A stretch of DNA of 64,000 nucleotides from a virus. Below the pieces are notes generated by a model that saw only the letters and a program-made list of their open reading frames with translations, was not told where the DNA came from and did no database searches. Every line of letters begins with the position of its first letter. Positions within the stretch are counted from its first letter, which is position 1. This document shows positions 11,698 to 14,077 of this stretch, one piece after another. The stretch lies in the IMG/VR virus record IMGVR_UViG_3300032246_003079, one strand, 5' to 3'. Both the position numbers and the translations under genes were made by a program.

Positions 11698-12425
11698 TAT
11701 TTTAAACTTTTTAATTTTTTTATTGATTCAATCAAAACATCAACATCTTTTTCACAGTATTTTGCAATTTCATCAAGTCTACTCTGATTCCAATATGCCT
11801 GATGAACCATACCTCCATTTATTTCACCATCTTTTGGTGTTGGAATATCTAAACAAGAACACATTAAATCTAAAGAACCAATTGAACTATACGAACCATA
11901 TTGCCAAATTTCTTTGGTGTCAATCGCTTTCACTTCCCATGGTTTGGTGTCGTATGACGGAAGTATTTTTGATGGCATAATATTGTTAATAATCATACGT
12001 TTTGCCAACATAGGAATATCAAAGTTTTTTAAATTATGTCCACACAAATAAAAATCTAATTTGTGACAACGGTCTAATAAATTTCTAACTTCCAATAGCA
12101 AATCCTCTTCGTTGTCATTTTTAAAAGTTTGTTTTTTTACATCACCGTTTTCTAAAACAAATGCCATTGATACACAAACAATTTTAGCAAACTCTGGAAC
12201 AAGTGCCGCTCTTGAAGAATAAACATCATTCATTTTTTGAAGTTCTTCTTCAAGACCATTTGTCTCAACGTCATCTTCAGGAAATCGTTTTAAAAACCAA
12301 TCAAAGTATTTAACAAATTGTTCAGCAATTTTAGGGTGATTTTCTTGACAAGTCCGCCAATCCTTACATATACCAACAGTTTCAATGTCGATAAATAAAA
12401 TTTTGTTAATAGGTATGTTTATCAT
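11697..12425 (-). CDS. Stand-alone PolB-type 3'-5' exonuclease (DEDDy)
   Basis: FIDIET, GHNLKNFDIP, YCEKDV. Confidence 0.85.
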   Translation of the reverse strand: MINIPINKILFIDIETVGICKDWRTCQENHPKIAEQFVKYFDWFLKRFPEDDVETNGLEEELQKMNDVYSSRAALVPEFAKIVCVSMAFVLENGDVKKQTFKNDNEEDLLLEVRNLLDRCHKLDFYLCGHNLKNFDIPMLAKRMIINNIMPSKILPSYDTKPWEVKAIDTKEIWQYGSYSSIGSLDLMCSCLDIPTPKDGEINGGMVHQAYWNQSRLDEIAKYCEKDVDVLIESIKKLKSLK

Positions 12426-13682
12426 TTTATTAAAGATTTATAAAGTTCCGCTCTATTTTTTGTGACCACATTCAAATCATATGTGTCTTTCACCGTTTCA
12501 TACAATCGTTGTCCCAAGTCATAAGCAAAGTTAGGATTATCAATTAATTTTTTCATGTTTTTAGCCCAATCACTATGATTTTTTACTTCATCTACTAAAA
12601 GTGCGTTTCCGTCAGAGAATTGACCATTTTTTAATGCGTGTTTTAAATCAATAGTGTAGGGACCAACATTTGAAGCAATAATTGCTTTTTTGTAAAAACC
12701 AGCTTCAATAACTTTTAATTGCGACTTAACTCGGTTAAAAATATGATTTACAATCGGTGATAATGAAACGTCAAATAATCTATAATTTGAAGCATAACTT
12801 GTAACAGGTTTTGTCCAAACTCGATTGTAAAAAGGTTCAGACTCCATAATATATTCTGAATCCTCAAATTTTTTCAAATATTCAATATGTTGGGGGGAAA
12901 CCATTTTATAATTGTCAGTAAAAATTTCTTCATAACGAGCCCATACGGTTTCTTCTGGTCGTATTGGTCTTTGTTTTTGTTCTCCCGTTTCTTTATTAAT
13001 TTCAGTAACACTTCCTCTTGTATCAAAACCACATAAATACAATGAAAATTTGTCATGACTATCTTTTAATTTATTCGTAACGCCGCTTAACAATTTTAAA
13101 TCGTGTAAGTGAGAAGAACCACCCAACCATCCAAAACGAAGTTTATCTGACGGTTTTGTTTCATGGTTAAATTGAGCTTCTTTTGGATTAATTGCATTTG
13201 GAAGAACGTATACGTTTTTATTAATTTTAGATATTTCTGAAGCAAATAAAGATGTTGTTGTTGTTACATGTGCCGCCACTTTTAGATTTGCAACTATCTT
13301 TTGATTTATTTTGTTCTGTATGATTAGTTGATGAATTGGGTGCTCTTTAGTTGGCAACCAATAATCATCTAAATCCATAATTGTAATTACACCAATAGAA
13401 TTTAATGTTTGAATTAATTTATTGGATTGGTCAAAATCTTGACCAATTGACCTATGGAAATGTACAATGTCGTATTGTTTCCAATAGTTATAATCATTAA
13501 TTTTTGGGTCATAATCTATATCTATGTGAAATTCATCTGAGTGATTATTTTGTAACATTACGTGGGGGTCTACAGACCTAAATTTTCCTTTAAATTCAGC
13601 CAACTCCAGTACGGTCGCTAGGGACGCATAGAACCCTAATTTTTTTGCGAACGTCTGGAGTTGGATTGCTCTCTTGATTCAT
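12422..13682 (-). CDS. GT-B (GT4-like) glycosyltransferase in two frames: 13682-13599 and 13585-12422, separated by a 13-nt insertion (about 415 aa if rejoined)
   Basis: An A-rich-context ATG at 13682 gives MNQESNPTPDVRKKIRVLCVPSDRTGVG-stop. Removing 13587-13599 joins it in frame to KFRSVDPH. Downstream are DLDDYW, VLPNAI, GWLGGSSH and KSQLKVIEAG. Confidence 0.8.
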
Positions 13683-14037
13683 GTTTTTTTATTAAGTTAT
13701 TTATTATTTGTGGGTTTGATTTCAATTCAGACTCCCACACCACTTCAAAAAAATAACCATTACTTTTTATTAAGTCAATTTTATTATTATCATATTCCCA
13801 TAATTCTTGTGCGGTTTTTTTCTTTACTTGGTGATAATAACTTGCGTCGTATTTTTTTGGGTTACAATGCCAATAATCTCCATTATATTCAATAATTAAA
13901 TTTAATTTAGGTATATATATGTCACATATTTTTGTGTCAATTTTTAATGAATGTTTTACTTGGTAACCCATATTTTTTATTTCTTCCAATATTTCTTTCT
14001 CTTTTTTAGACCTATTAATTGATTTTATTTTTCCCAT
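13636..14037 (-). CDS. Vsr/DUF559-like (EDxHD-type) endonuclease, free-standing
   Basis: SKKEKEI, CDIYIP, LIIEYNGDYWHCNP, D..K...GY...VWESE; its 3' end overlaps the true start of the glycosyltransferase. Confidence 0.75.
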   Translation of the reverse strand: MGKIKSINRSKKEKEILEEIKNMGYQVKHSLKIDTKICDIYIPKLNLIIEYNGDYWHCNPKKYDASYYHQVKKKTAQELWEYDNNKIDLIKSNGYFFEVVWESELKSNPQIINNLIKKHESREQSNSRRSQKN

Positions 14038-14077
14038 AATATGATTAATAGTCCCGACCTATCAAAAGGTAATAAAA

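Follow-up and report, generated by a model that had tools for sequence, protein, structure and literature searches.

A conserved, covarying mRNA hairpin at the take-off codon of interrupted phage glycosyltransferase genes, with a proposed role in a short ribosome hop

How can a phage glycosyltransferase (GT) gene yield its normal product when an in-frame stop codon and a stretch that cannot be translated follow its first 28 codons? The question is raised by a locus in the window, by which we mean the whole 64,000-nucleotide stretch of viral DNA that was analysed (IMG/VR record IMGVR_UViG_3300032246_003079). A sequence-only reading of this DNA had pointed to a long hairpin that ends at a putative take-off codon and had suggested that it could refold behind the ribosome and push it forward. 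In order to evaluate this suggestion, we analysed the fold, its distribution among related alleles and the coding constraint on either side of the break. The features of the locus are collected in Table 1.

Table 1. Coordinates of the features at the interrupted GT locus (positions in the window)
Feature	Position	Strand	Details
Whole cassette	13589..14074	(-)	486 nt; replaces 146 nt of near-isogenic contig L005
Endonuclease remnant	13636..14037	(-)	133 aa; nuclease domain only; overlaps GT start by 47 nt
GT first coding piece	13599..13682	(-)	ATG 13682 to take-off GGC 13601-13599; 28 codons
mRNA hairpin	13600..13664	(-)	22 bp, four helices; GT codons 7-28
Outer helix, 10 bp	13664-13655 x 13609-13600	(-)	CCAACUCCAG x CUGGAGUUGG; perfect complementarity
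Helix 2, 3 bp	13654-13652 x 13613-13611	(-)	ACG x CGU; from sequence and fold
Helix 3, 4 bp	13650-13647 x 13618-13615	(-)	UCGC x GCGA; from sequence and fold
Helix 4, 5 bp	13638-13634 x 13623-13619	(-)	UAGGG x CCCUA; from sequence and fold
In-frame UGA	13596..13598	(-)	directly 3' of the take-off codon; ends the ATG 13682 frame after 28 codons
Extra 13 nt relative to intact homologues	13587..13599	(-)	CUGAAUUUAAAGG; removal gives ...GVG|KFRS...
Landing codon GGA	13586..13588	(-)	first GGN past take-off; decoding would restart at AAA 13585-13583
GT second coding piece	12422..13585	(-)	387 codons and stop

An interrupted glycosyltransferase gene and its hairpin

The product of the interrupted gene is of the GT-B glycosyltransferase type; the second coding piece matches Glycos_transf_1 weakly and the glycosyltransferase family phrog_7162 with an E-value of 5e-46. 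The large open reading frame in the program-made list (TTG 13603 to 12422) lies in the +1 frame relative to the frame of ATG 13682. Intact homologues are 404 aa long, are up to 98% identical and read ...SDRTGVG|KFRSVDPH... across the position of the break, so deletion of exactly 13 nt (13599-13587) restores the conserved protein. The first coding piece begins with an 11-codon extension that is absent from uninterrupted (gap-free) alleles and continues with the conserved beta1 strand and Gly loop. The RNA of this extension is complementary to the codons immediately 5' of the break, and the extension is conserved mostly as RNA pairing dictates. An AlphaFold2 model of an intact homologue was poor (mean pLDDT 52), and its usable N-terminal part was limited to beta1 (residues 4-9) and alpha1 (residues 18-31). 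According to this model, the junction would fall at the N-terminus of helix alpha1, just past beta1 and the Gly loop, the loop itself being of low confidence. We infer that such a location may explain selection for exact restoration of the protein over a short insertion.

The sequence-only reading had described a perfect outer helix that continues inward to about 22 bp and ends, on its 3' side, in the GG of the codon before the stop. Direct reading of the sequence bore out the outer helix, and folding gave four helices that total 22 bp, together with a loop of 10 nt and an internal bulge rich in A. The last bases of the 3' arm are indeed G13601 and G13600 of the GGC codon, and the UGA is immediately next. 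The minimum free energy (MFE) of the 69-nt piece that holds the hairpin is -31.1 kcal/mol, compared with -13.8 ± 2.8 kcal/mol for its dinucleotide shuffles (z = -6.2), none of which was as stable (0/200). When the piece was folded in a 141-nt context, the identical structure was both the MFE and the centroid structure (z = -4.0). Folding, which had been named as a check, thus returned the hairpin as the MFE structure. Its description as a GC-rich stem in an AT-rich genome was also accurate, the GC content being 51% in the hairpin and 30.5% in the window.

Two further claims concerned what the stem contains. The TTG at 13603-13601, which the open reading frame list uses as a start, does sit within the stem as had been stated, and this is specific to the allele class of the window rather than general. 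The 5' arm had been read as dual-coding, serving both an endonuclease tail and the GT extension. This is true of the window, where the endonuclease reading frame stops at TAG 13638-13636 and so overlaps the first 15 GT codons, but it does not hold for most related classes.

Distribution, covariation and genomic setting of the hairpin

Relatives of the GT and the endonuclease were collected from IMG/VR. They include 42 distinct gap-bearing alleles, all interrupted at one codon, with gaps of 5–13 nt that comprise 16 different sequences. The most frequent gap length is 6 nt (25 alleles), followed by 11 nt (five) and 7 nt (three); gaps of 8, 12 and 13 nt occur in two alleles each and gaps of 5, 9 and 10 nt in one each. 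In every one of the 42 alleles, the gap starts with an in-frame UGA or UAA directly past a GGY or AGY codon, and the codon that ends it (GGN or AGY) shares its first two bases with the take-off codon. The latter agreement must be taken with the screen in mind, which itself required a match between take-off and landing codons (GGY to GGN, or AGY to AGY). Outside the set, contig L163 (L163:1860-1960) carries the unmatched arrangement AGU-UAA-GGC; it is the one such allele seen, and it may be that GGU recently changed to AGU, that the copy is dead or that mispairing is tolerated. If the intact relatives naturally carry Ser at the site of the break, their gap-bearing counterparts have AGY on both sides. 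Additionally, within a single lineage that shares its N-terminal peptide, the gap is 11 nt long in two alleles and 12 nt long in two others, with different sequences.

The coding sequence on either side of the gap is constrained. Among gap-bearing alleles, pN/pS was 0.29 for the 17 codons before take-off and 0.14 for the nine codons from the landing codon to the first in-frame AUG, compared with 0.32 for the overall reading frame. The second GT piece is open, with no further breaks, in all 27 full-length gap-bearing relatives. Judged from these comparisons, both pieces are under purifying selection and both appear to be translated, for which there are no protein data. Since gap lengths vary from 5 to 13 nt at one codon between conserved flanks, the gap appears to be bypassed and not read or frameshifted. 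Alternatively, the gene might be dead or split, with a hairpin that arose incidentally from the insertion, as the output of gene callers would suggest, which predict only truncated GT products of 378 or 393 aa. We give this explanation almost no credence, given the selection on both pieces (including the nine codons that precede any in-frame AUG), the lack of a second break in 27 diverged relatives and the compensatory changes in the hairpin described below.

The hairpin separates the two kinds of allele completely. There are 26–29 codons before the break in gap-bearing alleles and 17–18 in gap-free alleles, and the surplus supplies the 5' arm. All 42 gap-bearing alleles have the hairpin, with 18–27 bp in 58–69 nt and folding energies of -23 to -34 kcal/mol. 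For the 75 nt ending at the junction codon, the energy was -29.4 ± 2.5 kcal/mol in gap-bearing alleles (n = 42; weakest -23.1) and -8.7 ± 3.5 kcal/mol in gap-free alleles (n = 87; range -2 to -20.1), with no overlap between the two groups (Mann-Whitney U = 0). The sequence-only reading had conceded that it would be refuted by an equal presence of the stem in insertion-free homologues; none of the 87 has it.

The choice of codon for the first Gly of G-V-G (window 13607-13605) also differs, being GGG, GGA or GGC in 42/42 gap-bearing alleles and GGU in 34 of 62 gap-free alleles. This bias fits a need for strong pairing. The same choice gives a Shine-Dalgarno-like GGAG or GGGG 2 nt 5' of the take-off codon; the RF2 +1 frameshift site likewise has a Shine-Dalgarno-like element near its shift codon.

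To analyze covariation, we relied on alignments made per lineage (A3 and A7) and on a covariance-model alignment (A5), because the register of the 5' arm is offset by 1 nt from class to class; when 22 sequences were aligned by codon anchors, RNAalifold recovered just 7 pairs. A further alignment, A4, was dropped for containing antisense and chance hits. In A3, a naturally gapless and unfitted alignment of lineage C1, 94.8% of cells were paired, compared with 27–54% when the partners were slid; four pairs had changed on both sides, and none of 500 shuffles reached the covariation score. In A7, made with MAFFT from a more distant, YFRS-type lineage and likewise not fitted to structure, 89.6% of cells were paired (29–48% when slid), seven pairs were doubly changed and 0/500 shuffles matched the observed values on all five measures. 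The pair facing the third base of the Val codon occurs in this alignment as CG, UA, GC and AU. In A5, which contains 27 distinct sequences from all KFRS-type classes and is fitted to the model, 86.6% of cells were paired, and eight pairs, amounting to 59 cells, were doubly changed. The sequences are mutually related, so the shuffle statistics exaggerate their independence. Covariation among insertion-bearing homologues, which had been put forward as a second check, was present in A3, A7 and A5. Consistent with a matched pair of arms, swapping 5' and 3' halves between classes weakened the fold from -28.9 to -20.3 kcal/mol, a cost of about 8.6 kcal/mol. G-U pairs are retained, and the antisense strand scores about 20 bits compared with about 100 bits for the sense strand, which indicates that the structure is a sense-strand RNA.

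The break was brought by a mobile cassette, which put 13 untranslatable nt behind the Gly-loop codons. Contig L005 (record G001), the gap-free record nearest to the window, is 95–96% identical to it on both sides of the cassette, and homology restarts at the landing codon (13588). The cassette contains an endonuclease remnant, the 5' arm, recoded N-terminal GT codons that form the 3' arm, and the gap. Contigs L131-L133, which are 97% identical to the window, have 525 additional nt (L131:976-1500) at a short direct repeat around the ATG and encode a full-length endonuclease of 315 aa, in L132 at 955-1899, with a NUMOD3 motif (26.4 bits, cut-off 20.4) and a DUF559/MTES_1575-like (Vsr-like) nuclease domain. 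By this comparison, the endonuclease in the window is a 5'-deleted remnant of the 315-aa form. Presence/absence polymorphism in near-identical genomes together with a modular nuclease meets the criterion for a free-standing homing endonuclease cassette; there are no data on cleavage of the gap-free site. The endonuclease reading frame is also broken in contigs L085 and L106. Separately, we observed a AAUAAAUAA-like motif at 13698-13710 (-) of the window, and at the equivalent position in relatives, about 20 nt upstream of the GT start. It falls in the conserved C-terminal codons of the endonuclease, resembles a motif found 5' of gap-free GT starts and may be a GT promoter, for which there are no promoter data.

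Endonuclease and hairpin can be found apart from each other. Seven gap-bearing alleles without any endonuclease (L212, L215, L229, L237, L256, L269 and L303) keep both the gap and the hairpin; upstream of them lie an ordinary terminator and an intergenic region, and either the endonuclease was lost or the cassette was transferred in part. Conversely, seven gap-free alleles with an upstream endonuclease have no hairpin (-5.9 to -8.0 kcal/mol). Thus, the structure tracks the gap and not the endonuclease. These two groups bear on the idea that the inverted repeat serves the cassette or its endonuclease, whether by terminating or processing the endonuclease mRNA, by forming a cruciform in the DNA, or as a site of protection or recombination. 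The hairpin did come with the cassette, and in the window the endonuclease reading frame terminates inside it, but neither group would be expected on this account, and the G-U pairs and the difference between sense and antisense scores speak for a sense RNA rather than DNA. A terminator in particular would not fit, as CUGAAUUUAAAGG follows the stem with no U-run and the stem lies within a selected coding region. We therefore regard a role for the cassette alone as highly improbable.

A proposed short ribosome hop at the hairpin

The results above show that a sense-strand hairpin, both conserved and covarying, sits at the take-off codon in all gap-bearing alleles and nowhere else. We consider it likely that this hairpin acts in cis, as a conserved mRNA signal, in a short programmed translational bypass by which the GT is repaired at decoding. 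The hop itself, and any effect of the hairpin on it, is inferred, with no experimental or proteomic evidence. The mechanics are likewise a matter of inference: the hairpin could push by refolding, or it could act as a backstop or control ribosome spacing.

The position of the hairpin is closely tied to the take-off codon. In all 42 alleles, the last paired base lies between -2 and +1 from the first base of that codon, and the hairpin starts 11–23 nt past the A of the AUG. When folded, 9–13 of the 15 nt ending in the take-off codon are paired. Going by bacterial ribosome footprints, a ribosome with the take-off codon in its P site covers those 15 nt, so the outer helices cannot be closed at that moment. 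Their closure, over the last 15 nt, contributes -19.6 ± 3.2 kcal/mol, and the apical portion, already outside the ribosome and free to fold, accounts for about -9.8 kcal/mol. Additionally, longer gaps are associated with helices that extend further into the take-off codon (Spearman 0.63, with no phylogenetic correction). The interpretation of the hairpin as a refolding element of a bypass is thus supported by its absence from gap-free alleles, its covariation and its 3' edge at take-off in 42/42 alleles, whereas the push that had been proposed remains an inference.

Several of the criteria for bypassing are met at this site. The gap length is not bound to the triplet frame, and the sequence on either side is conserved; a stop codon (UGA or UAA, 42/42) is in the A site at take-off; both codons could be read by one peptidyl-tRNA, their first two bases agreeing as the screen required; and a 5' stem-loop is able to re-form on exit from the ribosome. 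The site fails the criterion of a take-off stem-loop that forms in the A site and whose 5' side includes the take-off codon, and no conserved 3' stem-loop was found. A conserved small stem-loop 3' of take-off was considered and rejected: it is weak in the window, where a possible 7-bp A-U stem spans 13598-13579, broken in the closest gap-bearing relative (L002) and impossible in 6-nt gaps.

The hop would proceed as follows. A ribosome initiating at AUG 13682 would melt the hairpin and stall once GGC occupies the P site and UGA the A site. At this stall, the final ~12–15 nt of the 3' arm would lie within the mRNA exit channel and the 5' arm and apical helices outside it. The outer helices would then zip, with about -20 kcal/mol, by which the mRNA would be drawn from the ribosome or, at least, backward sliding would be blocked. 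The peptidyl-tRNA-Gly would quit GGC and re-pair at the first downstream GGN, the GGA landing codon, and decoding would restart at AAA to give a normal ...GVG-KFRS... protein. The base of the helix could travel only as far as the channel exit, so the drive would fade past about one 5' footprint; a drive limited in this way would fit gaps of 5–13 nt.

Two features of the window argue against a hop. GGC and GGA match in only two of three bases, and the strong pairing of GGC with its tRNA means that take-off is not obviously easy. In the 13-nt class, and only there, the frame reached by a +1 frameshift at GGC-U would be open too, with four extra residues in the product.

Other modes of decoding were rejected. 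A single +1 or -1 frameshift cannot be the common mechanism because the gap lengths would demand opposite shifts. Stop-codon reassignment, a suppressor tRNA or read-through would not restore the frame across gaps of 5, 7, 8, 10, 11 and 13 nt, and there are no tRNA genes in the window. Re-initiation fails for 6-nt alleles, in which the conserved, selected KFRSVDPH codons follow the stop without an intervening start codon.

A hairpin that is functional and tied to the gap need not drive the ribosome mechanically. It could throttle or space ribosomes, lend stability to the mRNA 5' end, or hide spurious internal starts, of which TTG 13603 would be one. The hairpin is near the start codon and contains that TTG, and ribosome spacing is stressed in the literature on T4 gene 60 (bioRxiv 10.1101/2024.12.09.627546). 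Such an indirect role leaves unexplained, however, why the 3' edge is fixed near the take-off codon (to within 3 nt) in 42/42 alleles and why gap-free alleles in a like genomic setting need no structure, and the buried TTG is limited to the allele class of the window. We judge an indirect role alone to be unlikely.

The gap might also be removed before translation, either by forward slippage of RNA polymerase at the hairpin or by cutting and rejoining of the RNA. A hairpin that ends at a direct repeat of 2–3 nt is what one would expect if hairpin formation drove RNA polymerase forward, and such activities are not excluded in an uncultured phage background. This account gives no reason for an in-frame stop after the first repeat, which is present in 42/42 alleles with 16 gap sequences. 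In addition, we know of no precedent for a 9-bp RNA-DNA hybrid that re-pairs via only 2–3 bases. Removal of the gap before translation thus seems very improbable to us.

Returning to the hop, a stronger form of the proposal is that the hairpin suffices by itself as a portable 'ribosome pusher', whose zipping energy advances a stalled ribosome without decoding over a reach of about 13 nt, the length of mRNA between the P site and the exit. We put this forward only tentatively, as a possibility that we do not favor. If true, the GT family would be a minimal natural bypass system composed of a stop, matched codons and one 5' hairpin, and no take-off stem-loop, nascent-peptide signal or Shine-Dalgarno-like landing aid would be needed. 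The more general hypothesis, that pairing of the exiting mRNA drives the forward movement, can be tested directly, as the natural cassette is only about 140 nt long and is available in dozens of natural variants.

Relation to known recoding systems and to homing

Programmed bypassing in phages has so far meant T4 gene 60 and its homologues in topoisomerase genes, and Manning and Atkins state that no similar bypassing has been reported in other phage genes (bioRxiv 10.1101/2022.08.31.505936). The GT system resembles gene 60 and MobA in having a Gly take-off codon followed by a stop, a matched Gly landing codon and a 5' stem-loop that re-forms only after leaving the ribosome (bioRxiv 10.1101/2022.08.31.505936; PMC5462505; PMC7026636). 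In T4 and here alike, the gap belongs to a homing-endonuclease cassette in which the endonuclease can decay; the copy in the window is one of those in which it has. The differences are substantial. The host gene of the T4 system encodes a topoisomerase and that of the present system a GT, with no sequence homology between them; the gap is 50 nt long in gene 60 and 5–13 nt here, 4–10 times shorter. The GT system also employs Ser codons for take-off and landing and lacks a conserved take-off stem-loop, and its endonuclease is of the NUMOD3 plus DUF559/Vsr-like type and not MobA. Given these differences, the GT system is not a member of the gene 60/MobA family.

The two systems also differ in the 5' hairpin. 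That of gene 60 is weak, and the homologues of gene 60 do not conserve it (bioRxiv 10.1101/2022.08.31.505936; bioRxiv 10.1101/2024.12.09.627546). In the GT system the 5' hairpin is dominant and covarying, its strength and conservation far exceed what has been reported for those homologues, and it is the one element common to all gap-bearing alleles across gaps of 5–13 nt and two amino-acid identities. Pairing within the exiting mRNA has been proposed as a forward driver in T4 gene 60 (bioRxiv 10.1101/2024.12.09.627546), where this is still an open question.

Similar hairpins have been studied in frameshifting. A refolding upstream hairpin that abuts the shift site stimulates +1 (forward) and attenuates -1 frameshifting, an effect also seen in a 70S system (PMC3639245; PMC6321510). 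As in the GT genes, the 3' edge of these hairpins abuts the recoding site, and they are proposed to act by pulling the mRNA forward when the stem refolds behind the ribosome. They are, however, engineered constructs or a coronavirus attenuator and act over one nucleotide, whereas the proposed GT event spans 5–13 nt with re-pairing at a distant codon.

Short hops over a stop or hungry codon have been described in synthetic constructs (bioRxiv 10.1101/2022.08.31.505936, refs 5-10). These share with the GT site the matched flanking codons, the slow codon, the frame-independent re-pairing and the short distance. They are unprogrammed and inefficient, in contrast to the GT site, which is natural, conserved and selected and has a dedicated structured stimulator. 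The byp elements of Magnusiomyces capitatus mitochondria are, like the GT cassette, natural mobile inserts whose bypass is required for functional proteins (summarised in bioRxiv 10.1101/2022.08.31.505936). They differ in being 27–55 nt long, in depending on mitochondrial translation, in lacking a link to an endonuclease and in having a take-off codon followed by a sense codon without a tRNA instead of a stop.

A literature search of incomplete coverage found no publication on a hop in a GT gene. A nucleotide search of deposited phage genomes gave no match, and the best match in a protein search of the same genomes was 36% identical; with no close deposited match, there is no cultured relative and no prior annotation. 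The GT genes also matter for annotation, as gene callers truncate them.

The arrangement suggests a route by which a homing endonuclease could shield its own genome from cutting at low cost to the host gene. In contigs L003, L004, L050, L065, L150-L152, L167, L169 and L175, the endonuclease adjoins an uninterrupted GT gene without a hairpin. In L003 and L004, the first GT codons appear by eye to be unusually GC-rich at synonymous sites, which may be an alternative escape from self-cleavage. Lastly, remoter relatives of the nuclease domain (L186, L192, L195, L196 and L199-L201) lie upstream of an unrelated protein of ~490–500 aa, which points to other homing targets.
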